NCBI GenBank assembly: GCA_973895155.1
Contig: OZ316893.1
Span: forward strand, 2,316,420 to 2,380,419
Direction: 5' to 3'
Length of the DNA stretch: 64,000 bases
Source of the DNA: Marsupella aquatica
Lineage: Eukaryota; Plantae; Marchantiophyta
Part shown: positions 9,991 through 60,340 of the stretch, in pieces
Position numbering within the stretch: position 1 is the first letter of the stretch
Layout: the number at the start of each line of letters is the position of its first letter
Notes under the pieces: model-generated
The model's input: the letters and a program-made list of their open reading frames with translations, nothing else
Told to the model about the DNA's origin: nothing
Databases searched by the model: none
Made by a program: the position numbers and the translations under genes

Positions 9991-10044
9991 CAAAGCTCGA
10001 AGGGAACATTGGAAAAAGATTCACGCTCTTGGAGGTCCATCAGG

Positions 10045-11526
10045 ATGGGGATAACGATGACAACAGCTCTCATCGTGGGTTTCCTACCTCTCTTGTTATT
10101 GTTGTTGCGGAGCTTTTTGCTACCACCGGCCCCGAAATTGCCTCCTGGGCCACGGCCGCTGCCGATTGTGGGCAATTTGCTGTTGATTAGGAAGTATCCA
10201 TCTTTAAACGACTTCGCCAACGAAATGAAGCGCCAATACGGTCCGATAGTGAGTATCTGGATGGGCTCCACGCCTATGGTCATCATATCGGGGCCGGAAA
10301 TCATCCAGGAAGCCATGATCTCGCAGGGGAGCATTTTCAATGCACGCGGACGAAGCGAGTCCTTCCGCATTTTGACAGACGGCTACAGAATACTCGAAGG
10401 GGAGCGTCACCGGTTCGTCCGGAAGCTAATGGTCTCCGGCTTTCTGAGCAACAAGAGATTGGCGGAATTCAGACCCATCCGTGAGCAAGAAGTAGACTTC
10501 CTGGTCGAGAGGTTGAAGAAGCAACTTCGGGAAAACAGAGGAATTGTGTCGATTTTTCGTGAACTAATCCGTTTGACAGTCTGCAATTTGATTGTAGGCA
10601 ATCTCTTCGGGAGGAGATTGACTGCGGAGGAGTACGTGGACCTGGACGAGGTGATGGTCAAGCGCTTCCAAACAGCGGTGGGTGGACCGAGCGACTTCAT
10701 ACCGTTGCTAGCATGGCTTCCGAAGAGGACAGGGGCCGACTTCATGCTGGAATTGCGAAGGGATATCTCTCGAATCGTAGAGCCGCTGATTGAGGAGAGG
10801 AAGCAAGTCCTCAAGTCCGGGAACACGGGTCAAGGCACACTTGTGGATACCCTACTGGGGCTGCAAGAGGGCGAGATCCCAAGTCCAGTAGAAATTTTGG
10901 ATTCAGATGTGGTACTGATATGTATGGAAATTCTCAATGCCGGGACAGACACCACCGCACTAAATTTGGAGTACTGCATCGCCAATCTCATCAACCATCC
11001 GGAGATACAGGAGAAGTTAGCTCAAGAGATTTCTGCCGTTGTGGGCGAGAGGGTTGTGAATGAGGATGACATACCTCAGCTCCCTTACTTACGAGCGGTG
11101 GTCAAAGAGGTTCTACGGAGGCATAGTCCAACGCGATTGGCACCATCTCGGAGGGCGTTGTCCGCTACCAAGGTTGCAGGCTACGACATACCAGTGGACA
11201 CAATCGTTTTGCAGCATCTGGAGGCTGTGGCCTTGAGCTCTGAACTCTGGGAGGATCCTCTGGAGTTCAGGCCCGAGCGCTCTCTTAACAAGACAGTGGA
11301 TATCACTGGCTCCACCGAAATCACCATGATACCATTCGGAGTGGGTCGTCGAAACTGCCCAGCTGCCAACATCGCTTTTCTGCATGCAGAATTGATCCTG
11401 GCTCGTCTGATTCAAGCATTCCAGTGGAATCCTGTCACCCCTGGCCAGCTTCTGGACCTTTCCCCTGATGCTGGGCTCACTGCTCCCATGAAGTACCCCC
11501 TTGTTGCGTCTTTACAGGAGCGATAG
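10045..11526 (+). CDS. Cytochrome P450, CYP71 clan, CYP77/CYP89-like, intronless, 493 aa (copy 1)
   Basis: N-terminal TM anchor, proline hinge LPPGPRPLPIVGNL, I-helix AGTDTT, K-helix KEVLRRH, PERS (variant of PERF), heme motif FGVGRRNCPA. DITGSTEITMIPFG resembles CYP89/77. First ATG is at 10045; the ORF track start is a TTG. Confidence 0.95.
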   Translation: MGITMTTALIVGFLPLLLLLLRSFLLPPAPKLPPGPRPLPIVGNLLLIRKYPSLNDFANEMKRQYGPIVSIWMGSTPMVIISGPEIIQEAMISQGSIFNARGRSESFRILTDGYRILEGERHRFVRKLMVSGFLSNKRLAEFRPIREQEVDFLVERLKKQLRENRGIVSIFRELIRLTVCNLIVGNLFGRRLTAEEYVDLDEVMVKRFQTAVGGPSDFIPLLAWLPKRTGADFMLELRRDISRIVEPLIEERKQVLKSGNTGQGTLVDTLLGLQEGEIPSPVEILDSDVVLICMEILNAGTDTTALNLEYCIANLINHPEIQEKLAQEISAVVGERVVNEDDIPQLPYLRAVVKEVLRRHSPTRLAPSRRALSATKVAGYDIPVDTIVLQHLEAVALSSELWEDPLEFRPERSLNKTVDITGSTEITMIPFGVGRRNCPAANIAFLHAELILARLIQAFQWNPVTPGQLLDLSPDAGLTAPMKYPLVASLQER

Positions 11527-20900: not shown

Positions 20901-22170
20901 TCTAAGTCTTGGGCTTTTCACTCCTTAAAAGTGGCAAGAACATCAGACTTATTGTGTAGAAAGTATATCCACACATACCTTGAGTAATCATCAATGAACG
21001 TGACATAGTATAACCGTCCAGAATGTGAGGGAGTAGGGGCTGGACCCCACACATCACTATGTACATACTCAAGTACCTCCTTGCTGGTGTGAGTTCCAAC
21101 TCCGAAGGGTTTCCTGTGCTGCTTCCCAAACACACAATGCTCACAAAATTCCAACTTACAAGATTGCAAATTAGAAAGTAATCTTTTCTTCTGAAGAATA
21201 ACCAAACTTTTTTCACTAATGTGGCCCAAATGGAAGTGCCACAGCCAATCCGTCTCCTCATGAAATAAGGTTACATTGGCTTCATCACAGAGTACACTGC
21301 CCTCCAAAACGTATAGATTGCTATGTCATTTTCCCTTCAATATAACTTTAGTACCAGTTGAAACCTGAAGGACACCATTAGCAGAACTCCACTGATGCCC
21401 ATTTGCTTCTAAAACTCCAAGTGAAATGAGATTTTTCATCATGCTGGGAATGTGTCTCACATTCCTCAACGTTCTTACAGCACCATCAAACATCTGAAAT
21501 CTTACAGATCCAAGTCCAATAACTGGACATGGGATTCCATTTCCCATCAACATTGACCCGTTGGAAACCGTGTAAGAACTGAAAAAATCTCTCCTAGAGC
21601 AAATGTGAAAAGTACATGCACTATCTAGAATCCAGTCATCACTACCTGGATTCGACACTATATTGAGAGCATAACCTTGGCATCACAATATGTCATCATC
21701 ATCGAGTAAATCTACCTCATGCAAGCTTGATGCTGCGTTAGCAGATGCAGTAGGGACCTTTACTCGACAATCCCTTTTCATGTGGCCTGGCTTGCCACAA
21801 TTCCAACATGCAAGAGGCTTCCTCTCTTGCGATTTCCCTCTAGATTTAGATCTCCCCCGTGATGTAGATCTAAACCTGTTCTGCCCATTCGTGCGCTGCG
21901 CTGCTCTTCCCCTGTTCACATTGAGCGCAGTGCTAGAAGAAGATGCTGTCAGTGATTGACCCAGCTTTTTCTGAGCATCATCAGACAGTAAAGAGCTCAC
22001 CACCTCATTATACAAAATGGACTTCAGATCTCTATACAAGAGCACCTGTTTCAAGCCCTGATATGACGGTGGTAAGGAGCTTAGCAGAAGCAAGGCCTTA
22101 TCCTCATCTTTAACTCCTTTTCCCAGGTTTGACAGATCCACCGCTAGACTGTCAAATTCATCCAGGTGAT
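17941..22170 (-). mobile_element. Copia element 2, 3' part (3' LTR 17941-18286, RNaseH, RT, integrase, protease, 3' gag), decayed
   Basis: LTR TG...CA of 346 bp and PPT (rc of 18287-18300). Motifs: YVDSDYGGC, YVDDML, SLYGLKQSPRQW, YVHSDVWGP, WILDSACTFH, zinc knuckle CWNCGKPGHMKRDC. Gag stops abruptly at 22170. Confidence 0.95.
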
Positions 22171-23766
22171 GGATGCATCCAAGAAGAGTCAAGAGAAGAG
22201 CAAGAGCTTAGAGAAGAAGCTCAAGGAGGTACGTAAATCGTTATGAGAGGCTCAGATCAACACGGGGACCCCGGGGATGCCACCCCGATCTGTCAACCTT
22301 GGGACTCCCATGGCCACCGGGCAGGTTTTACCGTTGGAGTTGCGGTCCGGTGAAGAGGCGGCCTTATGGAAGAACACCATTGGTGAGGGGTACATCAAGG
22401 CGTGGCAGACCTTGGCCAATTTGAGGAAGCAAGGGAGCACTAGCACAAGGAGTACCCCGGTGAAGAAGAAGAGGAATGAAGTGGCACTCACTCCAGTGGA
22501 GAGTGATGAGGAGGCCCACTCACGGGGCTCAAGCCAGGGCACCGTGAGTGAAGAGGAGGAAGATTAGAGTGGTCGTACGGACGTGGTTGTACAGCCCCTT
22601 GACTTTCCAACTTTTTTTTGAGGGGTCACTCACGGGCTTGTTGGAAAGAGCTCACGGAGCTGATTCCAACAAGAGGCAGCGCTCCTCAAACGGAGCCAGG
22701 ATGAGCAAGTTAGGGCCCGGCGAAGTTGGGTTTACGGGATACTGAAACGGCCATAACTTGGTTGTCCGATGTCCGTTTCAAGAGCGGTTGAGTAATTCAT
22801 GATCAGGAGGAGGAGGGCTATCCAGGGGTGAACTCAAAAGTGCAAGTGGAAGGGCACCTAGTTTCGGCCATTGTGGGGTTCCTTGCAATTTCACGGTTCA
22901 CGGAGTAATGTTGGGGTGCCGTCGAAGGCACCGCCGGCCCCATTGTTAGTTTAGGGTTTAGGGTTTTAGAAGCATGTGTGTGCTGCATGCTTTTAGTTTA
23001 AGGGTTTCTTAGTGAAGGGTTTAGCGGCGCCGCTAGGGTAAGCCGCCATCGTTGTGGCCCCGGGAGGGGTGCTTTGGTGTGTTTTTTGGTATTTAGGGGG
23101 AGAGCCCAGGAGTAGTTAGGGGGGAACTCAGTATAGTGTTGGCTTACGGGAAGTTAGCGGAGGACCAGAAGGAGGAACCGAGTCAGAGTAGTGAGGTAGA
23201 GGGTAGCACTTGCCCCATTGAGGCAGGAGTTGGACAGACGGCAGGAGGCTGGGTTGTCCTTGCAATGTGTTATCCTTTTTACCAAAAGATATGGATTTGA
23301 TTGGATTTCTCAAGTTTGGTGTTGCGTTATGTTTTCCGGTTCACGATTGTGTTCTTTCCCAGGAATAGTCTAAGGAATCCTTGCTTGGGTTGGTCAACCA
23401 GTTAAGGAAAGGGGGGGTGGTGACAGCACTCCACAACGACCAGTAGAATGTGTGTGTGTGTGTGTGGAGTAGTCCATGGGACTTGATCAAAAGCAAAGAA
23501 TGGCTAGTCGGTAGACTTGATCAAAAATTATATTTCCGGGAGTGGAATCAAATATACTCATCCTTACGTGTGGAAATCCTCCAAATAGAGTCCCTCCACG
23601 ACCCCGGAACATGATACCAACAGTTTATGCACAGGAGAGTAGTATTTTATGTATAAATGATTGGGTAGACAAGTGACATAAGTGTGGTCCTTGTTTTTGG
23701 TGAGCTATTGAGTTGACCTGACACTAAAATTCTAGAAAGTACCATATGCTCCTTGGTATCATGACA
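22171..23766 (+). mobile_element. Remnant of another, probably LTR-type, element: internal fragment plus putative PPT and LTR
   Basis: Purine tract AAGGAAAGGGGGGGTGG at ~23404-23420 followed by a TG...CA segment 23421-23766. Lys/Glu-rich frame at 22171-22567. The left edge is an inversion breakpoint. No diagnostic enzyme motif. Confidence 0.4.
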
Positions 23767-27959: not shown

Positions 27960-28620
27960 GCCCAAGGACAGGTTCTTAAGTGAAAGAGCTACCCTGGCGC
28001 TGACAAATGACGAGGCACTAAAAATTAATGAAGTCCTCAGATATCTTAGAAAGACTTCCTGGTGAATCTAGGGGGTTTTTTAGCGTTGATCGTCCGGATC
28101 AGCTCGAAGGGGAGAATTTTTACCCTACGGAGTTCTTGAATACACTCACGCCGAGTGGTGTGCCGCCTCATAAGTTGGTAGTGAAGGTTGGATGCCCTGT
28201 CATTTTACTTTGGATTATAGATCACTCTTTGGGGTTGTGTAATGGTACTCACCTAATTGTGAGAGCAATGAATCGTCGTGTCATTGAGGCACGAGTTCTT
28301 GCAGGAAAGCATGCAAGGACCCTTACATTTATCCCACAGATTCCGTTGACATCTGACAAATCACTTCCTTTTTTATTACGTAGGGTCCAAATTCCCATTC
28401 AAGTGACATATGCAATGACCATAGACAAGGTTCAAGGTCAGACTTTAGATCATGTAGGGTCAAAACTTTCAAAATCTGTATTTAGTCACAGACAGTTGTG
28501 TGTAGCATTTTCAAGGGCAACATCTTCTACAACTATCAAGGTTTTCCTTTCGGATTCCAAGGAGGGTCACTGAAGCAAGGTTGACAAAAAATGTTGTATA
28601 TGATGAGGTTCTTTATTGAA
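27960..28620 (+). pseudogene. PIF1-family helicase C-terminal fragment (Helitron RepHel)
   Basis: YPTEFLNTLTPSGVPPHKLVVKVGCPVILL...GLCNGT...YAMTIDKVQGQTL...VFSHRQLCVAFSR are typical Helitron helicase motifs. No Rep domain is present. Confidence 0.92.
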
Positions 28621-30236: not shown

Positions 30237-31718
30237 CTATCGCTCCTGTAAAGACGCAACAAGGGGGTACTTCATGGGAGCAGTGAGCCCAGCATCAGGG
30301 GAAAGGTCCAGAAGCTGGCCAGGGGTGACAGGATTCCACTGGAATGCTTGAATCAGACGAGCCAGGATCAATTCTGCATGCAGAAAAGCGATGTTGGCAG
30401 CTGGGCAGTTTCGACGACCCACTCCGAATGGTATCATGGTGATTTCGGTGGAGCCAGTGATATCCACTGTCTTGTTGAGAAAGCGCTCGGGCCTGAACTC
30501 CAGAGGATCCTCCCAGAGTTCAGAGCTCAAGGCCACAGCCTCCAGATGCTGCAAAACGATTGTGTCCACTGGTATGTCGTAGCCTGCAACCTTGGTAGCG
30601 GACAACGCCCTCCGAGATGGTGCCAATCGCGCTGGACTATGCCTCCGTAGAACCTCTTTGACCACCGCTCGTAAGTAAGGGAGCTGAGGTATGTCATCCT
30701 CATTCACAACCCTCTCGCCCACAACGGCAGAAATCTCTTGAGCTAACTTCTCCTGTATCTCCGGATGGTTGATGAGATTGGCGATGCAGTACTCCAAATT
30801 TAGTGCGGTGGTGTCTGTCCCGGCATTGAGAATTTCCATACATATCAGTACCACATCTGAATCCAAAATTTCTACTGGACTTGGGATCTCGCCCTCTTGC
30901 AGCCCCAGTAGGGTATCCACAAGTGTGCCTTGACCGGTGTTCCCGGACTTGAGGACTTGCTTCCTCTCCTCAATCAGCGGCTCTACGATTCGAGAGATAT
31001 CCCTTCGCAATTCCAGCATGAAGTCGGCCCCTGTCCTCTTCGGAAGCCATGCTAGCAACGGTATGAAGTCACTCGGTCCACCCACCGCTGTTTGGAAGCG
31101 CTTGACCATCACCTCGTCCAGGTCCACGTACTCCTCCGCAGTCAATCTCCTCCCGAAGAGATTGCCTACAATCAAATTGCAGACTGTCAAACGGATTAGT
31201 TCACGAAAAATCGACACAATTCCTCTGTTTTCCCGAAGTTGCTTCTTCAACCTCTCGACCAGGAAGTCTACTTCTTGCTCACGGATGGGTCTGAATTCCG
31301 CCAATCTCTTGTTGCTCAGAAAGCCGGAGACCATTAGCTTCCGGACGAACCGGTGACGCTCCCCTTCGAGTATTCTGTAGCCGTCTGTCAAAATGCGGAA
31401 GGACTCGCTTCGTTTGCGTGCGTTGAAAATGCTCCCCTGCGAGATCATGGCTTCCTGGATGATTTCCGGCCCCGATATGATGACCACAGGCGTGGAGCCC
31501 ATCCAGATACTCACTATAGGACCGTATTGGCGCTTCATTTCGTTGGCGAAGTCGTTTAAAGATGGATACTTCCTAATCAACAGCAAATTGCCCACAATCG
31601 GCAGCGGCCGTGGCCCAGGAGGCAATTTCGGGGCCGGTGGTAGCAAAAAGCTCCGCAACAACAATAACAAGAGAGGTAGGAAACCCACGATGAGAGCTGT
31701 TGTCATCGTTATCCCCAT
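30237..31718 (-). CDS. Cytochrome P450, CYP77/CYP89-like, intronless, 493 aa (copy 2)
   Basis: Same motifs as copy 1 but with an intact PERF. Four amino-acid differences from copy 1 (M/V, G/K, T/A, S/F). Confidence 0.95.
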   Translation of the reverse strand: MGITMTTALIVGFLPLLLLLLRSFLLPPAPKLPPGPRPLPIVGNLLLIRKYPSLNDFANEMKRQYGPIVSIWMGSTPVVIISGPEIIQEAMISQGSIFNARKRSESFRILTDGYRILEGERHRFVRKLMVSGFLSNKRLAEFRPIREQEVDFLVERLKKQLRENRGIVSIFRELIRLTVCNLIVGNLFGRRLTAEEYVDLDEVMVKRFQTAVGGPSDFIPLLAWLPKRTGADFMLELRRDISRIVEPLIEERKQVLKSGNTGQGTLVDTLLGLQEGEIPSPVEILDSDVVLICMEILNAGTDTTALNLEYCIANLINHPEIQEKLAQEISAVVGERVVNEDDIPQLPYLRAVVKEVLRRHSPARLAPSRRALSATKVAGYDIPVDTIVLQHLEAVALSSELWEDPLEFRPERFLNKTVDITGSTEITMIPFGVGRRNCPAANIAFLHAELILARLIQAFQWNPVTPGQLLDLSPDAGLTAPMKYPLVASLQER

Positions 31719-32882
31719 CCTGATGGACCTCCAAGAGCGTGAATCTTTTTCCAATGTTCCCTTCGAGCTTTGAATCAAGGGTTTCGCTCCACTACAGTTG
31801 CAAAGACAAACAAGCTACGGCATAGGTCTGCGCTCGGGCGATCAAGCTGGATCTATTGGGAAACCTCTACTCTCATGAAAGTCTTGCAATCTGAACAGAA
31901 TTTCCGGATAAAACTTTCAGCTCAGCTGACACCTTTGTCGATGGAGCTAATGACTCTTGAGAGACTTGGCTCAGCACTCCAAAGGTCCCTTCAAGCTTTG
32001 GGTCAAGGGTTTGGCTCCACTACAGTTGCAAAACAAGCAGGCTGTGGAATAGGCCCGCACTCGGGCGATCAAGCTGCATCCAGATGGGAAACCTCTACTA
32101 TACATGAAAGTATTTGCAATCTGAATGGAGTTTCCCGATACATCTTTCAGCTCAGCTCATACCTTTGTCGATGGAACCGATGACTCTTTACAGACTTGGC
32201 TCAGCATTCCAAAGGTTCTTTCAAAGGTCCCTTCAAGCTTTGGGTCCAGGGTTTGGCTCCACTACAGTAGCAAAAACAAACAGGCTAGGGAATTGTTCTG
32301 CACTATAGCGATCAAGCTGCATCCACATGGGAAACCTCTACTGTAAATGAAAGTCTTGCAATCTGAATGGAGTTCAGGTTCAGCTTATACCTTTGTCGAT
32401 GGAGCTGATGGCTCTTTACAGACCTGCAACGCTGAGCCATTGTGGACACTCCGATCTGTGAATCTACTTTTCCAGGGTCACTCCAATTTAAAATGTTTTT
32501 CTTGGTTGAGTAGCTGCAGGAGGTTAGATATAATAGTGGCAAAGGAAAAACATATGTACAGTGGTCATACTTTACCCCAAACAAAGGACCCTCAAGCCGC
32601 CTCAGACTCTCAGAGGCGTGCCCTAGAGAACGTTCCTGTTACAGGCGTGCCCCCCTAGAGTATATTCCTGGCACTCTTGGAAATTTAGTTACCGTGCTCG
32701 TGCCACCCCTAGAGTATATTCCTGTCACTCTTGCAAATTTAGTTACAATAATTAATGTGGGTGTGTATCATTAGCTTTTGTCACATTTGCTTTAGCTCTA
32801 GACCTCTAGAACAATTCACTAGCAAGTGATAACAATTTTCCCCTTTTCTTTTCTTCTTTCTTTTTGATTTTTTGGTTGCATT

Positions 32883-34304
32883 TGTTAGATATTGTTCTAG
32901 TCTTGTGATTCATGAGCTAACCATAGTTAGTCTAACTTAGGTTAGGGTTTAGCTAATATTAACAGTAGTGTTGTTGTGCATATAGCCAAGGTTGATGCCA
33001 GGCCCCGGTGGAACTTAGGCTCATTGTTACAGAGCTAGTTGAGAGATAGGGAAAGTTTGTGCTGTGGATGCTTGGTATGGCCGGTCGGCCTAGAGTGCAG
33101 TAAAGCTCTTGTGTGTTCCCGTGGACGTAGCCTCATGTGGAGGTGAACCACGTATCTCTCTGTGTGGACTCTTGTGCGTTGGATGGTTCATGGGCTTGCC
33201 GTTACGAATGCCGTCTATGTTCAACAAGTGGTATCAGAGCCTATTTTTGGCTCTTTTCTCCTCCTCTTCGCTTCCTCTTGTTTTACTTGGTGCTGGGACC
33301 TGCCGCCCTCCGTTTTCACCGCTCCGACAGGGGGAACGGCCCCCTGTGAGACCTGTCGAACTGTGCGGGAATATTCCCAAAAAACAGAGAGTTTTTTTTG
33401 GCCGTTCGACAAAGATTCCGTCCGCTGAACGGTAACTTTTTTGGTGCTTTTTTGGCGAGGACGTTGCCACTGGAGTTAGCAACGCAGCGCACGGATCACA
33501 TCGCGATTTTGACGACGGGTTGTACTTGGTATTTCGGTTATTCCCTGAGGTGGTCAAAACGGAGGAGTTTCCCAAGGTTTTACACACCCCGACCAAAATT
33601 TAAATAACTTTTCCGTTGAATTTTGATTTTGATTTTGACTTTCAGTTTTGGACTCCTAGCTTCGTGGGCTACACGGCGGTGTTGAGTTTTGAGTTTTGTG
33701 AGAAGTTTTGAGAAAAGATGTTTTTTCGTGATTGTTTCACATGAGTGACTCAGAAGATACTGGAACAATTGGTGGTCGGTGGAGCTTGGGATCGCGACGA
33801 TCAAACGGAGAGTCTGAGGAGGAGCTGCTACCATTTGAGGAAGAACTAGTGTCACCGGTACAATCACCGGTGCGACGTGCAGTGGAGGAAGCTATACTAC
33901 TACCAGAGCTATTGGTAGTTGGAAAGAAGAGGGAGATGGCTAGATTTGGAGGAATGAAGTTTGAGGTAGAGAAGTACGATGGACGTACTGATTACTTGCT
34001 TTGGGAGAAGCAAGTGAAGGGTGTTCTACGGGCCATGGGCTTAGCTCATCTGCTTTCATCGCGAGAGCAATATGATGGAGAGGAGGAGATTTCTGTGAGA
34101 CAATGGAGACAGGAGCAGGTGATTATTGTCAACGCAGTGATGCTATATCTCAAGTCGCACATCATCAAGCAACTGGATGATTATGCGGATTGCGCGTCAC
34201 TGTTCAAGGCTCTAAGAGAGAAGTACTACAGGGAAGATGCGTCAGACCGGCTGTACAAGAAGTCTTGATTAGCCTCAGGCTCAAGGAAGGGAGCAAGATG
34301 CAGG
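32883..34304 (+). mobile_element. Copia element 2, 5' part (5' LTR 32883-33226, PBS, leader, 5' gag)
   Basis: 344-bp LTR TG...CA homologous to rc of 17941-18286. PBS TGGTATCAGAGC at 33229-33240. Gag KFEVEKYDGRTDYLLWEKQVKGVL ends at ...GSKMQ. Confidence 0.93.
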
Positions 34305-37443: not shown

Positions 37444-40400
37444 TTAAATTTTGACCATTTCGATGGATCTCATTTGGTACACCTCCAAGCTCTTGACACG
37501 GATGGGGGTGGTTCCGTTGTTGAAGAGGAAGAGATGCGATTTGGAGTTCAAGGCCACCGTCGGGTAGACTCGCGATGTGATGGCCAGTCTGCCTCCTTGC
37601 ACGAAAGTCTCGACAACTGAGTGATCCACCTGCAGAACATCGTTATGCGCACACAACGTTATTCGGCCGAGTTCACAATGAAGACCAAAAAGTTATGACG
37701 AAGACACGTAAGTTGATGGCAGTACGTTTCTAGAATTGAGCCTATGCCGCCGGAACTGCACATTCTATGGCTCTTTCCAAAACTGTGTGGGGCCAGAAAA
37801 CAATTGATTTTTCATGAGTATATGTGGTACTTACAAGGATTCGCAAGGTCAGGGTGTCCTCGGATGGCAAAACTGTAATAGAGCTGCCATAAACGGTTTT
37901 GTCGAGACCAGATGCCAATGAGGACCTGCATTGCATTTAAGGCAGAACATGTCAATTCCGCGTTTCCTAACTGACACAACAATTACTGTTCACGAGAAAT
38001 TCCCGCTACATGTAAAGTGAACAAAATAATTGCGTGGGTCACAGGTCTGTGATGGTTGCGGTACACGAAACAGGTACTCGCCAAACTTCTTCCACTGTAC
38101 AAATATCGACGAGTCCCAGAAACTTCGTCTTTGCTTCTCACAAGTATAATGAAGGGACACCCAAAAAAACCCGAAATTAAAAGCTACGAAATTAGACCAA
38201 CGAAAAGAAAACTTCAGTTACAAATTAAACTATGGTGTTTGATCTCTGCTGGTTTCTTCAATTGAAGAAGTCAGCATAGACGTGGCTTCTAGCACGTCGA
38301 TTTCGCACTACTAATTTTTCAATATATTACTAGCTGTCGGACTCTGAGATCGGAGACCGGTCACGTCTCCGACTTCGTTGAAACAATTTGAACAGCCTGG
38401 GTGGCAAGAACGCACCTGCTCTGGTCGCTGCACACTCTCGTGGCCCACTGCCCGTTTTTCAGGGGAGAGATGTAGAAGAAAACGCCCGTGTGCTCGGTGA
38501 GTGCGTCATCGGCGTGGACAAGAAGCCCGAAGGGCCCAAACACGCCCCTTTGAGCCGAGCCTCCTTGGCCGCAGTCAAATTCCTGCTCCTCAGCCTCATC
38601 CACTTTGTTTACGTCTGGCTTCTCAAACGCAACCACGATATCCAACTGCACGCATACCATCAGACGAATCAGATGAGTTCTTCTACAGTTTACATGTGCA
38701 AAACCTAGTAAAACTTGGAACATCTCTGAAGAATACCGGGATTTGATCGATCAGACCACATTGCACCCTAGTACATTAAAAGTTGTGAAAGGCAATCTAC
38801 AGTAGAGGGCGACCTTCAGGAACCTTTAAGGTTGGAGTCGCAGGATTATCTGAGCAGATCGACTTGCAGAGTGCTGCTGGCAAATAAGGAAAAGCAGTGA
38901 CGCCTTCTACTGTAGTTTCTTTGCCTGCTCATCTACTGCTCTGCGCCTGTACGTCTCGCGTAGACGCTGTTTAGGATTGATGCGCTTTGAATAAAACACT
39001 TTCGGAGGAACAAAACAATCAGACGGAGTAATTATCTGAGATATTTCACGGCCAGAACATTGTAGACAGCTATGGTCACGGTCGCATGTGACGTCAGAAA
39101 CACCTCCAAAGTTCGGTAACACCTACCAGCTAGAGGATAACCAAATAACTAAAATTCTTGGAGCGAAGCGTTTCCTCTCGACTATGGATGCCGTCACCAC
39201 TACTGTAGCCTTATCCAAAGGGTCTGATGTTTAAGCATATAATTATTGTCCCGCGCTCCAAACAGCATTTCTCTATGAATAATTGGATAAACCACGGTAG
39301 TCGCCAACTTCAAGATCTTGTTTACATTCCACAAGATCACAAGATCCCCAAATACAGCCGTCAATCGAGTTCAACTACAGTAGACAAAGTCGAAACTCAA
39401 AAAGTAGTGGGTACAAGGTGATTATCCCACAGTGAGGGGAGAGTAAGAGACGCTATCGTGTGCACTTTTGTCACGGCTCTACAGGTCACCTTTCATAACT
39501 TAGAATCTTGTGAATGGGATGTGCAAGGTTTCTCAGGGTTGGAGATGCTTTTTACAAACTCCAAACGGGCAGACAACATTTGGCAACGAGTACAAGTTAC
39601 ATCTTGGATACAGAGCCGGGTAGGTAGGGGGTGGGTGGAGCTGGGTATACCTGAGGTCCATCTGCTCCTTTTACTTTCACGACTTCTGTGGGTTGCAAGA
39701 GGATGTTTTCAGAAGAAGATTTCGCTCCACGAAGGGCATCCACTTCCGCAACCGGCCATTGCAGCAGATTTTTGTTGGTTAAGCCATCCAGCCAAACGGT
39801 CCTGGGAATTGTCTGCAGAAAGAAAATAATGGTCCGTGACGATGCACGTCACTTGAGCAGTCAGTTACTTTTCCACAGTACGCGATCGATAAAACATGAT
39901 CCTGTCGAGGGAACTACATTGATTAGGCTAGAAAGATCGAGTCAGAATATAAGTGGATCATTGCATTAAATTATGTACCCGAGATTAATGGTTCCCAATT
40001 CACAGGTGCAGCTTTGAGACGGATACAGAGTGAATGGATTGAAAGAACACAGACCATGACGGACGCCCATCCCTTGATGATGTCGTCCTGAACGCTGTCT
40101 GATTCATTGGCCCAACCCCACAAAATTCGCCTGTTGGTCTTAGAGTCGAAGAATGTCTTAGATGCATAAAACTTTCCGTAGTCATAGCGATATCCTATTC
40201 CCACGTCCAAACTAGGGTCGTCAGGAATGAACGTGTGAGTCTTCATCGAGTAAGTGCCGATGGCGTAGTGATCGTGCCATATCCCGTCCAGACTCGCCTT
40301 CAACACGTACTTGTAAGTGTCCACGTAGTTTTCTGCTCGCAAGACAGAGTGGTTCAGCCCAGTCTTGCCTTGGACCAAAACTGGATAAAAATCGACGCAC

Positions 40401-42211
40401 TCCCACATGCCTGTGCCTTTCACTTCGTGCAGAAGCTGCTCCTTCATGTCCCAGTGTTGGAAATCAGCGCTCTGATATAGCAGTGCAAATCCATCTTTAG
40501 TTCCGTCAGGATTATCTCTCTTGGCTCCCACAACGAGCCTCCACATCCCATCATCCTCCAGCCAAGCAGTGGTAGGATCTCGGAAATCCTGAGGATTGAC
40601 GTGCTCAGGATTAACGATGATAGGATTGTTTTCCGCTTTCTTCCATTTTCTCAACAATGGATCGGAGGGGTCCACGGGCAAGGCCAATTCTTGAGTTTGT
40701 GTCAAACCACCGTCTCGTGCGCCGGTGTAGAGAATTGCAGGAGTTCCATCTTGTAGGATAGTAGCAGAACCGGACCAAGCCCCAGCCGCGTCGTACCACT
40801 GATCAGGCATTATGGCGAGCTCGAGATGCAGCCAGTGGACAAGGTCGGTGGACACCGCATGGCCCCAGGCGATGTCTCCCCACAAGGAACTGTTGGGATT
40901 ATATTGATAAAACAAGTGGTAGTATCCCATGTAGTACATCGGTGCTGCATATCCATTGTTTTCGGTCCAACATTTCACATGTCAGTAAAGCGTCAAAGAC
41001 TTCCAATGCAAGTAGGTTACATGATCGAGCATTCGAGTATATATATGGTAAAGAGTAGTTGAGGACCACATTACGACGAATTCTACTCTTGATTTCCTGA
41101 CCTCCAAGCACATGGCGGCTCATATGTTGGACGCAAGAGGTTCTACTGTACATCGAGGTTACGATCAACAGAAGGAAGATGCCGATATATACAAGACACA
41201 GACGGTGCGTCGCATGTCTAGTGCATGGAAGAAGCAAGGTCAATCAATCTACTGTAGGGTGCTGTCAATCCAGGTAGTTCTCCTGAAGTCGTTGGCGCCT
41301 GGACAAGCCTAGCTAGAACTCGACATTCAAGTCGTAGACTTGCCACCTGCCAGCGTTACATTTTCTCACGTAAATTGACAAATTCCCATGACAAACTTCA
41401 TCTGGTCGTCTTGAGATCTAATTGACCAACCCTGCGCATAGACGGACTTTTCGCTGTAGGACACATGTGTCCCAAGAAGCAATTAAATACTGTCTATATA
41501 CACAACATTCATTTTTTCGGCGCCTTTCAGGCTGAAAGTGCAGAGAGTGATCGAGAGCAGCTCGGTGCTTTAGAAACATACCATTTGGATCTGTTGACAA
41601 AAGGAAAGGTCGTCGTTCAATTCCGTCCATCAACGTTATGGAGTCGAAGACACAAGTGAACTAGTTAGCATTGAACCGAACATATGTAGATCACTGTATC
41701 CATATCTAGTTCCCAACCTTCTCACTATATATATGACAGGAAACATGGAATGAGACAACGTACACCAGGACGGCTTTATGGATCTATCGAGGATGAAATT
41801 GGATAGAAGGAATCGATTCAGCTCACCGTTCATCCAGTTCTTGGTGGGCTGGAAGTGGTAGCCAGTGCGGGACGCTTTGTAGAAATCATTGGCACCATCG
41901 GCGTTTGGTTCAGCCTCAATTAGGCCGCCGCCTCCATTTTGCTTAATTACTGCGTTGTACGAGACCATTGCTCCGACGGCCAGCAGGATTGCTGCAGTGC
42001 AGCAGATGGTGATCACAAGAGCCACATTCCGGGTCCTCCTCTGAGGACGTGCACGTTCCACAGCTTCTTCTGGTATTTCAGTTGCCCCTTGTTCTGCTGA
42101 CGATGGGAGGGCAATGTAATCCTCGTTCACCGTCGAAATTCTTGCATTGCTGCAACTTTCGATGTCCTCATCATGGAGCAAGGATTCCTCCAACATATCA
42201 GACTTTCCCAT
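37444..42211 (-). CDS. Acid beta-fructofuranosidase (GH32), vacuolar-invertase type, 7 exons, ~650 aa
   Basis: Exons 42211-41827, 41590-41582, 40944-40055, 39812-39651, 38645-38416, 37925-37835, 37629-37444; all GT-AG and in phase (1953 nt). Motifs WMNDPNA, WSGSAT, FRDP, WECVD, DYGKFYASKTF, VDHSVVETF. N-terminal YIALP, a basic patch and a TM anchor are typical of vacuolar invertases. Confidence 0.95.
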
Positions 42212-45200
42212 AGTTCCACCAGTTTGCGATCCGGCCGAGTTCTTCCTCAAAGATTTTCTAAATCAAGGGACCTCTATCTCCAAGATCATGGAGGTCGGCA
42301 GCTGTTGGCACGAGCCACCGTTGCGTAATCGTCGAAGGACGAAGCAAAGGAAATCAAAGGCAGTCCGAGCGAGAAACTTGTGCACAGAGCGATTGAACAC
42401 CCTCTCCCGCTTATGGTGGGGAAGTAATTTATCCTCCTCCGATCACACGCTGCTAGATCTGAAACTTGTTGCGGGATTTATACGCTAGACCAGAGCGACA
42501 GCTTGTGGTCGCCGTTGTCTGCGGAACGACACGATGAAGTGCGAGGTCGTCCCACACACCCGGATCAGTTGAGCTAAGGTGATTCAAAGCAGCGTCATGG
42601 CCCGGAATAAATCTACAGTAGCTACGTCAATTCGAATTTTGGGTAGACACTCTGTGAGTGCACGAGGCTTCATTCACATTAACTCGTGATTGCCCCGGTC
42701 AAAAGCATGATTATCACGCCAGCAATCCTCCTCTCCATCTGAGTTCTACACGACTATTCAACAAAACAATCAGGACAGGTTCAGGACAGGATTCCGAATG
42801 CCGGTCGGTTCGCCGCCGGGGTTCGCCGGGACGAAGTTCCCCTTTGAGGATTAATTACTCAGTCTGAGAAAACAAATGTACTCCTCGATATATCAGGAGG
42901 ATTACACAGCCGCCAGTGTCATTTTGCAAAGATTTTTATTTTACTCAAGGTCACGTGCAATGAATGGGCCGGGCTTACAACAGCGTCCATGGGCACAAAC
43001 ACCCCTCAGAACAGTGTCTTCAAGCTTCAGAGGCGATTTACGCACGAGGAACGACTTTTCCGTGTTCACTATCTAGAGCCGAACCATAGATATTCCGCGG
43101 ACTAGATTCATAGACATCTGGACCAATGATCATCTTCCATGGTAGTTCTAAGATATATATTACTCTTGTATAGTTCTTTTTGCCGTTGGAAAGTGAGATT
43201 TGTCAGCCAAGTGGGTCCCCGTTGTGTTGTTTTCCTGAAGTAAGTATCGATCGTTTTCTATTTGCATGATTTAGAACATAATCAGCATGCGCCGTCTGTT
43301 ACGATGTTCAACAGGTACATTCCTGCTATACTCTACCGTGTTAATTTCTGCAAAATAATGCACTTTGTGCTTAAGCTCTTTCGACCCGCAGAACACGCGA
43401 TCTCTCACGCACTATGATTGATTCAATCATTCAATTTTAGGATGGAGTGGGGTTACGTGTGTCGGCTGTGAACCTTAAATTACGAGGAAGGCTAGGTCCT
43501 CAGTTCCCTCCGTTCCCTATATATCTTGCACGCAATATGATTGAACATGCATGGAGATACCAAGCACTGGCTAACGCAAAATTATATGACAAATGTACAA
43601 GTGTACAAGTGTCTTGAGATGAAGCTCATCGCCTAGAACGGATGAGCTGTCCTTCTTTTAACACTTGTACTTGGAACTCGGAGGAAATCAAGGATAGGCC
43701 GTGAAGCAACGATTCCTCTCGCTGGTTTACGGGCTTTTGGGACACAACTTCTGGAATGGAAGAATCACGAATTAAGAATGTGGAGATGAGCTCATCGTGA
43801 CGGGAGAGTTTGGGACAATGTAAATTCTATTTGATACCATAGAAATTCGCATTGCCCACACTTCCTTTCTTCTGAATTCTGGCCGATAGAAAGTCGGTAC
43901 CGCCCGAGCTAGCGCAGGGCAGCCATGCAACCATGGACAGAAAAGCTGCTACTATCCAAATTTTGATTGTCTTATGTACGTGCTTTTCCTTTATGAAAAA
44001 TTATGTGAAGAGTTGGGATTTTGTGGACAGGTTTGGATGTGGTTTGGGACTTTGGACAGCTCATCAGTTTTTTTCTTCAAGCCTTCGTTAGATGTCGTCA
44101 CTTTTCCCATTCAATGTCGTTATTTGTCTCTCCTTTCCTTTCTCTATATCTTTTTTGATCACTACTAAGGTAAGCTCATATATAACCCATGCCTTCCTGA
44201 TAGGCACTACTTTTTCCTTTCTCGTTCATGGACACGAGTTTTACACCAATCTATGTAGAGTGGTTCCAATGGAATGGTTTGAAATGGAAGAGAGGATTAA
44301 AGACATGCCAATATGGAGAGTGGCTCCTATGGGAAGAAGCTCGCCAAACATATATGACTCAACTCAATGTGCATGGTTTGTAACTATCCAATGTGTGACT
44401 AGCTATGTCATTCTATGTAAGTGCTTAAAAAATGGTTTAATGCAGCTGGCTGGGTCTTGTTTGCCAACTTTGGAAGTTTCTCTGGCACTACACCTTAGCT
44501 TGCTGATGGTAGCACATGAGGTGATTTCAGAGGTCAAAACCTAGGCTTTATCCACATATTAAGAAACCTCCATTGTGAAATCAGAAAAAAATGGGGACTA
44601 CCTTTCCTAGCTCACATGACCTGGTAGTCATGTGAGCTGGTAAAGGCTATAGACAGGTCATGTGAGCTGTTAAAGGCTATAGTCACCTGAGAGTTCCATC
44701 TGTCCCCCAAGGAATTTGGCAAAGCAACTACACAGAAGCTTGTGATTACATATATTCCTAAAATATAGAGATGAAAAGCTTCTATTAAGAGTGGACTGCA
44801 CGTACTGTAGGGCCCCACCAAAATTTATGTGGATGGAAAAACCCAAGGCATGTTATGCATTTCAAAATCATGATCATGGATGATGATTGCTGTCAACATT
44901 TCTATTAACATTCAAAGAATTGGCATTTAGGTTTGTTTAAATGAGCTTGGAGTGGCACAAAGTGCACGCACTCACTTTGTGGGTCCAGCTCCATTTTTCA
45001 GGAAGAGAACATTGCCAAGTCCATTCACGGTTGAATCAAAGACAAAAGCAATTCCACGATTCACCAAAAATGGCCCAACAAAGTAAAATGGAACAAAAGC
45101 AAACGAGGAGCTCCATAATCTGGTAGAGACATGCCCAACATGACCTCAAGGTTAAATCTGTCAGCACAAAAGTACCAATTTACTAGAAAGGGCCAAGCAA

Positions 45201-48113: not shown

Positions 48114-51100
48114 ATGGACTATACTGGAGTGCAACAAGGAACGAAGCGAGAAGGGATGGAGCCTGCTCGATTGTGCTACAATCGAGACAATCTGGCATTA
48201 GTAGGCTCTGGCATTGATGCCATAGCTCGGGCGTCGGTGCCTCACATTCCTGTCCGCGCTGAATCAGATGGTCCTTACCTTATCATCGTCGCAACCGAGG
48301 ATGAACTTCGTCAATCATCTGAGGGATTCGACGAATCGTCACTGTCGGTCGTCAGTGACCAAGAGTCCATCATTGATCTCGGACTAGTGAGCAACCAAGG
48401 CGGATTCTACTTCAAAGCAATTTTCTGGAAGGAAGGGATCGAAATGAGGCGGAATCTGGGACTTCCTTTCAAGCAACTCCACATAGTTCTCAATGGAACG
48501 GACCGTCCCATTATCTCGGAGGTCAATTTGAGATCGGTAGCAAAGGCCTTGAATCTCGTGGAATCTTCCACCAGTTCTGTCGACCATGATCATCAAGTCT
48601 CGTTGGTCATCGACTACTGCAAGTTTCTAGCGCGGGATCCCTGTTTGATAGCAACAACTGGAACGGACATTGTGGCTATCTTATCTCATATGTCATCAAT
48701 CCCGCAACTCCGAGGTAGAGATGCAGCACTGCTGGACTTACTTGCAGTGGTGCTGTACAAGATAAAAGATATGGAGAGATGTGTGGCGGCGTCCAAGGAA
48801 TTGATGTCACTGTTCCCAAACGACCCTCGTGGCTACTTCCGATGTGCTTCTTGCTACTTTCACATGGGTAAGTCCTCTCTAGGTGAACGCCATGGAGCTG
48901 CTCCGGCTTACTGTTGGAAGCTTGCAATGATGCTCTATGCAGAAACGGTGAAGCTTGCTCAGATTGCTGGTGCTAAAGAAAGTCTGCAAGATGAGCAACA
49001 ACAAGCTGCATGCCGCTTTGCCGACAAGTTGATGCTGCAAGCGTGCCAAGCCATCCTCCATTGTGCCAGGTACACCGAATTCGGATGCTTGACAACAGGT
49101 GCTGAATCTGAGCTCTTCCCGGAAGAGTACCTCCATCTCACACTTCCTTGGAATCCGGGAGTGCGCGATGCAGTGCTCCAGGCTTTCATTGCAAGAGGGG
49201 AGCCTGCAGATACACAATTGCTGAGCTTGGAGTCACGCGAGAGATTGTGCATCTACGACAGTGAATCGAAGCAATTTCTCAAACTGCCGAGGTTCTTTCG
49301 GTGGATCACGCCGTTCCGAGTGGCGGCAATGTCGACGCCTAAAAGTGCAGAAGACGTTCGGTTACTGTCCAAGCTTGGAATTGGCACGGTAGTCACTCTC
49401 ACGAAGGAGGAACAGTTGAATTCCAAATGGTTCGAATTTACGGCAGCGTCGACTGACCCCAGGCCGAGCAATGTATTCCTTCCTGTGACTAACTACAAAG
49501 CACCCACAATTGCACAGATTGACTACTTCTTCTCTATCATCATTCAGTCCCGTCAGACAAATTCAGCAGTATTGGTGCATTGTGGTGGTGGCAAGGGGAG
49601 GGCGGGTACATTTGTCGCCTGCTACCTGGCCAGGTATGGATTCATTGGCATGGCAGATCAGCAACCAAAGTATGGCCCTACCGAAGTCGTTAAAACCCTT
49701 CGTCACATGCGACCTGGGAGCATTGAGACTGATGAGCAGGAGCTATTCATTTCTACTTTTGTGAAAGAGCTTTGGAGACGTGCACAGACAGGCGGGAAAC
49801 TCCTCCTGCTTCCAGAACCTGAGTCGCAGGACGTGAAGGATGATCTCCAAATTGAGGGGAAGTTCAATCCAAAATGCAAGATTTTGGTGTGCTGTGGCAT
49901 TCCAGGTACTATAAATTTCACCTTCCATGTGCAGAACCTCGTTGTTGGACTCCTGAGTTGAATTGGCGAGCTAGCTGGCTTAACGAGAGGCAATCTAAGC
50001 ACAGTATATGTTGTTTGGAACTGAGAGCTTTAATTCCTAGATCTTGAGCAAGATATACAACCGTACAGATATAATTGTCTGAACAAACATGTGTGGAATT
50101 CCTTGGAAAGCAGAGAATTTGATCATACACCTTTGTTAGTTGAAGAAGTGAATTTGCCGTCATCCCTTGTAGCTTCTGCAATCACAAACTTTCTATTCTA
50201 TTTTTTGTTTCAATCACTCGATCCGACCATGCTCCGATTCAATGATCAAGGTGGCTAGGACGGAGCCACATGTTGCGAGCGAATAAGTCACCCATGTGAT
50301 GAGATTTGTTCTCGGCGCAATCCATGTTACTTTGTCATTTGTCCTTGGATGGAGTTTTCGCATTGATCTCATTGCTAATGTAAGAGTTTCACCTTTCATG
50401 GTCTACTGTGATCTCAGGAAGTGGTAAGAGTACTGTCTCGAAATCTCTCGGACGGGCAGGCTGGACAGTTGCTTCACAGGATGAGACCGGATCTAGGGAT
50501 GGTTGCGCTGCCGTGGTGTCCAATGCAATGCGCCAAAGCAAGTCTGTCATCGTCGATAGGTGTAACCCAACAATTCATGATAGGAGGGAGTGGATCGAGC
50601 TGGCTATGGTGTCGCCCCACGAGGTATCGTGTGTCTTCTTCGACTATGACGAAAGTCTATGTCTTCAACGCGCTAAGTTGAGATTGGACCATCCTACTTT
50701 GACATCCGACAGGTACAAACTCGTCAACTTAGCTCAACCTTTCTCCAGAAAGTTTTCCTCACGTACATGCTCTGTTTTCTAGGACTTTGAATCAACTCCA
50801 GTAGTTCAACAATTCTAGATGCGTTGTCTAGCTGCACATATTGAAAGTTTAGTGGAACCTCCACTGACGATGAACATTTCTTGATCATCGACTAGCATTG
50901 ACTTCATTATTGGAGGTCCACAAACAAACAAACATACCAGTGCACTAATTTAATGGACAATTCCGATTTAGTGCAAGTCTCCTCCGTCAGCCTGTTTCTG
51001 GGAGTCACTTTGCAATGTACTGATGAGAGCTTCCGGTCTTGGATCAACAGTCAGTGTACAAATGCAATCCGAAGCATGAGCAAGAATTTAAAGCGGCCAT

Positions 51101-52323
51101 CGATGAGCGAGGGATTCGGATCCATTGTAATTATCAGGAGCATAGCAGCAGCAAATAAGTTCGTTCAGAAGTGCTGCGGAACAGTGAAGTCTGGGGGCTC
51201 GAAAGCATCCAGCTCCTCGTCGTCGTCATCATCATCACCAAAAGCATCAGAACCGGAGTTAAGGTTGTCGAAGTTCCACAAGTTCCCGCGCACGAGGCAT
51301 CTGTTCAACTTTGGATCAGCGACACGAGACGACCTGGTCATGACAAAAGCCGAGGCGGCGGCTTTCTTCAGCAGTTCTACGGTCCGAGACGAGGAAGGCG
51401 AGAAATCGAAGGTGACAGTAACATTCGAGGAGAAGGTGGATGGCGCCAACCTAGGCTTCTCGATCGACCCTGAAACTGGCCATATCACAGCTCAAAACCG
51501 CTCCCATTTCGTCAACTCGAAAAGTCACCCTCAGTTCAAGAAATTGGACTTTTGGATCGAGACCCATCGAGAGGATTTAATGAATCTTCTTTGTCCTCCG
51601 CGTCCACACTGCAAGGTAATATCAATTACGGTCGATCTCAACGAATCAAACATTTGAAAGAAATGTCAGTCAGAGCTTTGAAATTGCAAGAGATGACGAG
51701 TAACATGGCAGTGACATTTTTGGGTATATGGCATTCTCATGTAGGGTGCTACGAGCTCCAGTTTCCAGAAGGCCCTATCCGTTCATCTCGCCAGGAATTA
51801 CATGTGATTAGAGCTGATCGACACATCTTTGAAAGATTTGCTCTCCTCAAATTCTCACGTTTTGTGTTGAGAACAATTTGATTGAAATGTGGATGGCCTT
51901 GTTCAGCAGGATGACAACGGCAAGCAGGGGCCTCTTATTTTGTTTGGCGAGTGGCTTCAGGCGACGCATTCCATCCGATACACAAAACTGCCAGACTATT
52001 TTCTCGCTTTCGATGTGTACGATGTGGCGCAGCGAAAATTCTGGTCGAGGGAGCGATTTTGGGCGGCAACTAAGAGCACTTCGATCCATGCCGTGTCGCA
52101 AATACCGTTTTCGGAGGACATGATCCATGAGGGAGTCTTCAAAGAGCTGATGGGGAGGCAATCTGCGTTCTACGACGGGAGCATTGAGGGAGTTTATGTG
52201 CGGCGGGACATGGGCCAGTTTTTGCTGGATCGGGGTAAGGTCGTGAGGAGTGACTTCATTAGCGGCAATACACACTGGTCAAAGCAATCTGTGGCCTCCG
52301 AGAATGTTGTCAGAAGGTTTTAA
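48114..52323 (+). CDS. Multidomain RNA-repair-like protein: degenerate 2H phosphoesterase, TPR-like region, DSP/PTP phosphatase, P-loop (AAA_33/PNK-like) kinase, ATP-dependent RNA ligase; 4 exons, ~1022 aa
   Basis: Exons 48114-49905, 50418-50712, 51051-51615, 51907(or 51910)-52323; GT-AG and in phase. Motifs: RRNLGLPFKQLHIVL; VHCGGGKGRAG (49575-49607); RPGSIET; Walker A GIPG|SGKST formed across intron 1; IVDRCN; FHKFPRTRHL; EEKVDGAN; FGEW; FDVYD; EGVYVR; GKVVRSDF. Confidence 0.9.
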
Positions 52324-58747: not shown

Positions 58748-59594
58748 ATCACTCGAGCGGTGATTTAATTTTTTTATTTTTCCGGGGCTTACAACTGGTT
58801 CTTGGTGAAGTTTCTCCACGTCTGTAAATAAACTTCTGATTCATCACAGTAGTGCTTCCCAGTGAGGTCTGTTCCAACTATTCATCCTTTCATTACAAGA
58901 ATGTTATGCCCCGGTTTTCAGCAGTGGAAGGAGATGGAACCGTTACTGATCTCGAGCGAGATTGCTGATTCTTGCAGTTTGGTTTGTTATCCTTCATCCC
59001 CTCGCTCGCTCGCCTGCGCTTGCTGGTGTGGTGGCAATGAGCATCTACGATGATGCCAGGCGCGTGGGCCTTGTCTAACGTTCTGGTCAGAATTAGGTAG
59101 CCCAAATCTTCTCGAAATGGCATCTTTCTCTTCTGGAAACCTGCCCTTCAGGTAGCGAGTAGTTAATTGGGGGCATTCAAAGACGAATTGTGTGAATCTA
59201 AGAACATTGACCAGTCACTGTAAAGGGCTGAAGAGATATCTAGGGGTGCTTTTATTGTGCTCACTGAGGCATCATTATCATTGAGCTCTTACAAATCAAA
59301 TGTGCTTAACAAACATGCTCATGGCTTGATGATGGTCAAGACTGGGCCATCTCCATCTCCAAGGATCAGTTATTATCATGTGTAGCAAAAAGCAAAATAT
59401 CAATGTTGCTGATGTGTCCTCAACATGCTTTAACTCAATAACAGGACGGGATCTTCTGCAGAATAGTCAATCTTTATACTATAGGAAGTTACACGTATTG
59501 AAGAACCTGGTCTGAACCACTACGCGTCATCAGTCAGTAGCTCGCAGGGGAAAAGCAAATACGAATTCATGCACAGGACGGTAGCTTTTATGTC

Positions 59595-60340
59595 GTGAGA
59601 GGAACCAGCGTTACTCACCTGGAGGATTTCCAAAATATCTTCGTGCTAGACCTGGCTGGACAGATGCAATGGAAGCAGTGTGCGAGTATGCTAGAGCCCA
59701 GAAAAAACTTTGCGGGTGTGGCGTCATGGATGGGAAGATTTATGTGTTCGGTGGTGCTTCTGCTGATGATAATCGTATTCGTAGATCAGAGGTGTATGAT
59801 CCCAAGGTGAACGCCTGGCTCCCTATTAGGCCCATGAAATACTTTGCGGAAATTACAGATAGAATTACAACAAGGGTGACGAGCTATTTGTGGCATGTCA
59901 GCTTGGATGGGGACCCTCATGGCAAGTTTATCATCCACTCGAGGATGAGTGGAGACTGATGGAAAAAGTCAGGATGTTTCCTGCATTTCTCAGCCAGCTT
60001 GAAAAAATATTCATGCAACAAGAAAAGTCATTTTCAATTAGTTCACACAACCTTCACGCTTACGATGCAGAACAGATGGAATGGAAATATAGATGTTCAA
60101 CATCATGTGATGAACTTGGGCCAATGGACTCTGTCACGTTTAATCAAGTAATCATTTTGCTTGTGGATAACGAGGTGTTAGTAATGGCAGAACGGGAGAG
60201 GACAGACACTGAAACGGAAGGCTACTGTCTCCTCCAAACGAGCAGATTCAGTGACAGTGGAGAGGTTGTGTGATCACAAGTACCGGACTCCTTCACGTCG
60301 TCTGATTTCCACGGTTTGATGTATCTGGCTCAGCTGTGAA
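59595..60340 (+). pseudogene. Kelch-repeat (F-box/kelch family) pseudogene
   Basis: QWKQCASMLEPRKNF / CGVMDGKIYVFGG / SEVYDPKVNAW / QVYHPLEDEWRL are spread over three frames. Similar to 6210-7700. Confidence 0.8.

Follow-up and report, generated by a model that had tools for sequence, protein, structure and literature searches.

We identified a four-exon gene, present once, in a 64,000-nucleotide stretch of the genome of the liverwort Marsupella aquatica (GenBank assembly GCA_973895155.1, contig OZ316893.1, positions 2,316,420 to 2,380,419 of the forward strand; hereafter the window, whose coordinates are used throughout). The gene is predicted to encode a member of the 'Swiss Army Knife' (SAK) family, with a 2H domain, a cysteine phosphatase, a polynucleotide kinase and an RNA ligase in one chain. 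Its exons, introns and encoded features are as follows.

48114-52323, + strand: SAK gene; four exons, three GT-AG introns, 1,022 amino acids
48114-49905, + strand: exon 1; residues 1-597 plus one nucleotide; degenerate 2H domain, helical TPR-like region, cysteine phosphatase and first half of the Walker A motif
48171-48518, + strand: 2H-SAK domain, predicted inactive; residues ~20-135; Pfam PF22547, E 3e-7, 31 bits against a cut-off of 27
48711-49103, + strand: helical TPR-like region; residues ~200-330; Pfam TPR, E 0.03-0.05, below cut-off
49266-49793, + strand: DUSP23-like cysteine phosphatase; residues ~385-560; PF22784 (PTP-SAK), E 3e-51, 173.8 bits against a cut-off of 27
49906-50417, + strand: intron 1; 512 bp, GT..AG, interrupting the Walker A motif; homologue alignments are gap-free there
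50418-50712, + strand: exon 2; polynucleotide kinase core with Lys601, Asp619, DRCN and the lid arginines
50426-50428 and 50480-50482, + strand: kinase Lys601 and predicted general base Asp619, placed by alignment to RazKIN
50713-51050, + strand: intron 2; 338 bp, GT..AG; best among the alternative acceptors scored
51051-51615, + strand: exon 3; kinase C-terminus, Ser-rich linker and N-terminal half of the ligase (KFPRTRH, motif I Lys824); PF09414, E 1e-8
51433-51435, + strand: ligase motif I Lys824, conserved in 149 of 150 homologues
51616-51906, + strand: intron 3; 291 bp, GT..AG
51907-52323, + strand: exon 4; ligase motifs III, IIIa, IV and V; PF09414, E 1e-13

The first-pass annotation of this DNA had proposed that four open reading frames splice in phase into about 1,022 amino acids, and our analysis agrees: the GT..AG introns join them in one frame, and the model scored highest among 56 alternative joins against its orthologue from the liverwort Calypogeia fissa (1546 bits, 15 gaps). 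Many other in-phase joins also leave the frame open, so introns 2 and 3 are not fixed by frame alone. An alternative acceptor for intron 3, at 51909, gives one glutamine fewer and a slightly lower score. Alignments to distant fungal homologues show no gap at junctions 1 and 2. The Walker A motif GIPGSGKST (residues 595-603) is created only by joining across intron 1, again as proposed. The motifs that had been read as intact were all located in the spliced protein, namely the phosphatase P-loop HCGGGKGR (residue 489) and ligase motifs I (EEKVDGAN, 822), III (FGEW, 897), IIIa (FDVYD, 919), IV (EGVYVR, 978) and V (GKVVRSDF, 994), and the anticipated Pfam matches (RNA_ligase, AAA_33, a phosphatase and 2H) were all recovered, the last two as PTP-SAK and 2H-SAK. 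The guanine-cytosine fraction is 0.50-0.52 in the exons and 0.41-0.42 in the introns.

Sequencing runs from a close relative (organism B) bear on intron 2. Contigs in all three runs examined (X3, X4 and X5) skip exactly the 338 nucleotides of this intron, between its GT..AG ends. The fragment carrying this junction consists of window positions 49601-49900, 50663-50712 and 51051-51200, with unrelated flanks on both sides, and its depth, which is not a copy number, is several-fold above that of the gene's own contigs. It was not seen in run X1 (organism A), where the stretch is unchanged in one contig; X1 may itself be the source of the window and does not count as support. The fragment is likely a processed, mRNA-derived piece, probably carried in a repeat, and the precise absence of intron 2 from it gives indirect support for that intron; introns 1 and 3 are predicted from homology only. 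The joint from 49900 to 50663 was considered as a splice and rejected, because its ends are TC..GT with two extra letters; we read it as a deletion with no bearing on intron 1. Overall, we regard the predicted four-exon gene as real.

The predicted protein is a member of the catalogued SAK family (2H-SAK, PTP-SAK, AAA_33, RNA_ligase), which was reportedly defined computationally by Burroughs and Aravind in 2016. It combines a PTP-SAK domain bearing the CX5R loop with an N-terminal 2H-SAK domain recognised by profile and a P-loop kinase followed by a PF09414 ligase. Fungal members are collinear with it in a single alignment over residues ~18-1019 (33-36% identity), and its whole-length identity to SAK members is 33-39%. 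Proteins with the same domains were found in basidiomycetes, ascomycetes, chytrids, oomycetes, rotifers, green algae and other protists, and 5 of the 79 viral loci kept span phosphatase, kinase and ligase. The earlier suggestion of a resemblance to Swiss-army-knife RNA repair proteins is thus confirmed, as the Pfam models themselves carry the SAK name. The available part of PMC7824862 describes 2H, phosphatase, kinase and ligase acting in turn as a general repair scheme, and applies the name 'Swiss-army-knife' to a HAD phosphatase family, citing Burroughs and Aravind 2016.

Land-plant names occur on 4 of the 215 protein clusters retrieved (Calypogeia, Ceratodon purpureus, Adiantum nelumboides and A. 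capillus-veneris), and GenBank already contains these SAK members under no protein name. The matches listed, from searches that score only ~8000 candidates and return many unnamed rows, included none named as a seed plant, Marchantia or Physcomitrium. In the supplements of PMC13069868, Pfam RNA_ligase is listed in plants, and a SAK-type combination was not found with the terms tried. The best homologue is C. fissa CAM6085520.1 (1,017 residues), with 74% identity over exon 1 and about 77% overall. A second C. fissa copy, CAM6091679.1, has 1,019 residues, and both are 76-77% identical to the window protein end to end. We consider them orthologues; neither has a functional name.

Among single-chain enzymes that act on broken RNA ends, fungal Trl1 and plant AtRNL also combine a ligase, a P-loop kinase and a 2H-type module. 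They differ in having the order ligase-kinase-cyclic phosphodiesterase and no cysteine phosphatase, whereas the window protein is ordered 2H-phosphatase-kinase-ligase, a distinction from Trl1/RLG1 that the first-pass annotation had drawn correctly. In a search with the whole structure model of a C. fissa orthologue, entry 9r3w (Trl1) aligned with the kinase region alone, and the ligase region matched Rnl5, Rnl2 and REL1. The reversed order and the added cysteine phosphatase are present as described but are not novel, being the usual SAK architecture: phosphatase, kinase and ligase are collinear in 70 of 70 selected homologues (residues 381-1015), and the TPR-like region and the catalytic residues are shared as well. 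Permuted orders also occur, with the ligase before the kinase in P0003 (Chlamydomonas eustigma) and the 2H domain at the C-terminus in P0002. Relative to other SAK proteins, the window protein has a degenerate 2H domain, three introns of 291-512 bp and a plant host, and is about 150 residues longer than typical members from agaric fungi (~860 residues). The gene thus adds a member to a known family and does not represent a new architecture.

The 2H fold is recognisable by profile, and both H-x-T/S motifs of an active 2H phosphoesterase are altered. The first reads L56-I-I58 (codons from 48279) and the second H123-I-V125 (48480-48488). Across 150 homologue rows, with 11 gapped rows set aside, both motifs are present in 118 of 139 SAK rows and degenerate in 21 (about 15%). 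Both C. fissa copies are degenerate too, with L-V-I paired with either H-V-A or Q-V-A; in the second copy both histidines are gone. No other enzyme domain is so poorly conserved between the window protein and C. fissa (68% identity, compared with 82% for the phosphatase, 86% for the kinase and 82% for the ligase). We therefore consider the 2H domain likely to be catalytically dead, and predict that the protein, as a single chain, would not both heal and seal 2',3'-cyclic ends. A working 2H domain was not confirmed, and the earlier description of a heal-and-seal enzyme was overstated in this respect. Support for the TPR assignment is weak in this protein, as the region's own Pfam match falls below the cut-off; the region folds as helical hairpins in the C. 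fissa orthologue's model, and consensus TPR proteins are matched by the family profile.

In contrast to the 2H domain, the phosphatase retains its catalytic residues, Cys490 (49581-49583) and Arg496. Asn460 replaces the acid of the D-loop, and Glu538 of the RPGSIET motif is kept. Among the 150 homologues the Cys and Arg are invariant (150/150 each), the IET Glu is found in 149, the D-loop Asn stands in place of the DUSP23 general-acid Asp in 142, and a P-loop Lys occurs in 146. The Asn together with the retained Glu forms a family-wide active-site signature in these alignments. The closest sequence and fold matches are DUSP23, Tk-PTP, SsoPTP and PTPMT1; in the orthologue model, DUSP23 (4erc) aligns over 150 residues (Z 22.9, root-mean-square deviation 1.6 Å) and Tk-PTP scores Z 19.6. 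The SAK domain shares the CX5R loop with DUSP23/VHZ and Tk-PTP, and the RPGSIET..QE motif with DUSP23, but differs from them in its D-loop Asn, its P-loop CGGGKGR and its fusion to RNA-repair domains. Cysteine-type RNA triphosphatases (PIR1/BVP) have the P-loop HCTHGxNR. An identity of this kind is ruled out by the loop HCGGGKGR, and BVP (1yn9) scores Z 12.9 against 22.9 for DUSP23. Phosphatase activity appears plausible because the equivalent glutamate, Glu134, serves as the primary acid/base in DUSP23a, according to the available part of PMC5965843.

The kinase domain (Pfam AAA_33, E 5e-8) retains the residues expected of a polynucleotide 5'-OH kinase, including the lid arginines R682 and R686, aligned to those of RazKIN. 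The Walker A Lys is conserved in 149 and the general-base Asp in 148 of the 150 homologues. Its best PDB match is a Rhizopus RNA kinase (9d8a, E 6e-15; E 4e-21 with the C. fissa orthologue), and it resembles mammalian PNKP as well. The closest solved relatives, the Mucorales kinases (RazKIN 9d8a, LcoKIN 9drz and MciKIN), have the Walker A motif, general-base Asp and lid arginines in common with it. They are stand-alone tRNA-splicing enzymes with a G-loop serine that selects guanosine triphosphate (GTP), whereas the SAK kinase is fused. The portion of PMC11571804 available to us reports that Mucorales RNA 5'-OH kinases phosphorylate 5'-OH RNA and DNA, prefer GTP and require Asp36; this Asp36 and the lid residues Arg99 and Arg103 map onto retained residues in an alignment read by us.

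A survey by column found every ligase motif intact (I, Ia, III, IIIa, IV and V), and the protein ends only 21 residues past GKVVRSDF. DNA ligases and capping enzymes carry an oligonucleotide-binding (OB) fold domain after motif V, for which there is thus no room. An ATP-dependent DNA ligase or mRNA capping enzyme was ruled out on this ground, and no DNA-ligase family was matched in Pfam at E 0.1. Single-sequence fold prediction gave a predicted local distance difference test score (pLDDT) of 35.7. Fold comparisons here refer to a model built for the C. fissa orthologue instead of the window protein (78-sequence alignment, pLDDT 86.7, predicted template modelling score 0.71). Its ligase region matched the Naegleria RNA ligase 5cot (Z 15.6, root-mean-square deviation 3.4, 194 residues aligned), T4 Rnl2 (1s68 and 2hvq, Z 14.8 each) and trypanosome REL1 (1xdn, Z 14.4). 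These four entries, all RNA ligases, were the only nucleotidyltransferase matches to this region among the 50 listed, which bears out the prediction of an RNA ligase rather than a DNA ligase or capping enzyme. No DNA ligase, capping enzyme or 2H protein was among the matches listed in the fold searches, whose listings one domain can crowd. The nucleotidyltransferase core is shared at 13-17% identity, and the SAK ligase differs in stopping just past motif V. The available part of PMC6379707 classes the Naegleria and T4 enzymes as Rnl5 and Rnl2. PDB sequence searches with the two ligase halves gave no meaningful match, and NCBIfam gave weak sub-threshold matches only. Many fungal homologues with Pfam RNA_ligase are named 'ATP dependent DNA ligase' or 'DNA ligase', probably a misannotation.

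Given these residues, we propose a repair route in which every step is projected from homology. The cysteine phosphatase would remove a 2'- or 3'-monophosphate using Cys490, with Glu538 as the likely acid/base, as in DUSP23, because the usual Asp is Asn460. The kinase, through Lys601 and Asp619, would add a phosphate to the 5'-OH, and the Rnl2/Rnl5-type ligase, through Lys824, would join the 3'-OH to the 5'-phosphate in a clean 3'-5' junction. With the 2H site lost, 2',3'-cyclic phosphates would first need opening by another enzyme. The route would be T4-like and not Trl1-like, as ligation by Trl1 depends on a 2'-phosphate, which is left behind for Tpt1 (available part of PMC11571804). We conjecture, by analogy with the role proposed for the family, that the substrate may be tRNA or rRNA cut by microbial nucleases or under stress.

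Phylogenetic analyses used the phosphatase-kinase-ligase region in sets of 71, 29, 38 and 23 rows, the three smaller sets leaving out most unnamed rows as well as near-redundant agarics and Aureobasidium. No tree included members whose domain order is permuted (the green-algal P0003 and others). The window protein and its C. fissa counterpart group together with support of 100, and the branch leading to them is long (0.5-0.6). The moss Ceratodon groups with Tilletia (96/96), close to trebouxiophyte algae, A. nelumboides lies among chytrids and Aureobasidium (98/98), and A. capillus-veneris lies among unnamed sequences. The A. nelumboides copies (P0146/P0327) are on short contigs of 267 and 136 kb, and their placement may reflect transfer or contamination. 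A single land-plant clade was rejected by the approximately unbiased (AU) test (p-AU 0.00016 with 29 rows and 2e-55 with 38 rows, both LG+G4; 5e-9 with 23 rows under a mixture model). Six further plant or green groupings, picked after the 71-row tree was known, were all rejected too (p 2e-9 to 0.01); that test covered liverworts with moss (p 0.0001), a grouping also rejected under the mixture model (p 0.002). When five viral rows were made the outer group, a set supported at 95/91 held the liverwort pair together with chytrids, Aureobasidium, ferns and unnamed rows. The failure of the land-plant copies to form one clade indicates separate gains from microbes, and separate transfers are the simplest reading of their scatter. 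The gene was likely gained horizontally from a microbial eukaryote, with chytrid-like fungi nearest, before the split from C. fissa, and this gain was probably separate from those behind the moss and fern copies.

Contamination of the window by fungal DNA was rejected on the evidence of plant-type neighbouring genes and of C. fissa orthologues on chromosome-scale contigs (46.8 and 25.0 Mb). The neighbours include GH32, cytochrome P450 and Kelch genes, and the window also contains degraded mobile elements.

39971-42262, - strand: GH32 (invertase/fructosyltransferase-type) gene, several exons; Pfam Glyco_hydro_32N, E 7e-85
6210-7485, - strand, and 59585-60273, + strand: Kelch-repeat (FKB95-like) genes, apparently split over frames
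9973-11526, + strand, and 30237-31814, - strand: two near-identical single-frame cytochrome P450 genes
839-5099, - strand; 18591-22207, - strand; 33732-34268, + strand; 28022-28573, + strand: degraded copia-type retrotransposon frames and a Helitron/Pif1-like helicase fragment, with motifs identified by eye

The two P450 genes are inverted and about 19 kb apart, and represent a recent duplication or an assembly feature.

Taken together, we consider it probable that this gene encodes a SAK member whose phosphatase, kinase and ligase residues are intact and whose 2H domain is degenerate, that the product is likely an RNA-repair enzyme, and that the gene is likely a horizontally gained accessory one. 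Several findings weigh against this interpretation. The nearest solved relatives of the phosphatase, DUSP23 and Tk-PTP, are protein phosphatases, not RNA phosphatases. This would fit a protein whose kinase and ligase repair RNA, healing 5' ends only, and whose DUSP23-like domain is regulatory and acts on proteins or small phosphorylated metabolites; the RPGSIET..QE motif shared with DUSP23 points the same way. We judge this improbable, as the domain is fused to 2H, RNA kinase and RNA ligase domains across fungi, oomycetes, rotifers, algae and viruses, its active site departs from that of DUSP23 family-wide at the D-loop and P-loop, and an Rnl2-type ligase needs a 3'-OH. The acceptance of DNA by a Mucorales kinase (available part of PMC11571804), the likeness to PNKP and the 'DNA ligase' names of fungal homologues would suit an enzyme that repairs DNA ends, analogous to PNKP plus a ligase. 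The RNA_ligase assignment, the lack of space for an OB domain and the exclusively RNA-ligase fold matches in the ligase region make this very improbable.

The gene also appears dispensable in at least one close relative, as predicted from a frameshift and near-neutral change in organism B. In runs X3 and X4, both from one study, a single base is missing at 49484/5, which would place a stop at codon 458, before Cys490; X5, from another study, is without it at a depth of ~4. Of the 36 differences between exon 1 of X3 and the window, 34 were counted; 24 are non-synonymous and 10 synonymous, close to neutral. In-frame indels occur in organism B at 48338, 49211 and 51225 as well. Such dispensability fits an accessory gene, and keeps alive the reading of a decaying acquisition, unexpressed or unneeded, in which 2H loss was the first step of pseudogenisation and the C. 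fissa copy without 2H histidines a further sign. We think this quite improbable: three full-length open copies (the window and two in C. fissa) keep all phosphatase, kinase and ligase motifs, the catalytic domains are more conserved than the 2H domain and linkers, and the intron-2-less fragment indicates past splicing. Regarding origin, support for placing the liverwort pair with a chytrid-containing group is only 84/59 to 86/87, and a grouping of liverwort with viral sequences survives the AU test (p 0.052), so that a viral donor is neither supported nor rejected by the trees. Ancient paralogy with many losses could also scatter the plant copies. In that case an ancient eukaryotic family, spread over many groups including green algae, would have been inherited vertically as several plant paralogues and lost in most lineages, consistent with the long stem of the liverwort pair and its lack of a well-supported sister. 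We regard this as possible but unlikely, given the rejection of all six further plant or green groupings, the well-supported placements of Ceratodon and A. nelumboides beside fungi, and the few land-plant names among the retrieved clusters. Transfer into bryophytes is moreover reported as frequent in the part of PMC12513842 covered here; the horizontal gene transfer tables of that study may already list the SAK family.

SAK proteins, found widely among fungi, protists and viruses, are predicted RNA-repair enzymes; neither a bench test of the family nor a description of the liverwort copy was found in the literature searched, which did not include the defining 2016 paper. A more speculative scenario, which we put forward as rather doubtful, is that seed-free plants captured a whole microbial SAK enzyme up to four times (in leafy liverworts, Ceratodon and two Adiantum lineages) as an antidote to microbial RNA-cutting toxins. 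The liverwort copy might then have shed its cyclic phosphodiesterase, either specialising on linear 2'/3'-phosphate ends or relying on its unusual phosphatase (Asn for Asp, P-loop Lys) to open cyclic phosphates itself; we know of no report of a cysteine phosphatase that does so. The scatter of copies among plants would provide a further example of repeated transfer from microbes. A natural plant variant whose 2H domain is probably dead, together with the naturally frameshifted copy in a close relative, offers a convenient case for establishing which phosphate each domain removes, and whether RNA-repair enzymes borrowed in this way serve plants against the ribonucleases of microbes.

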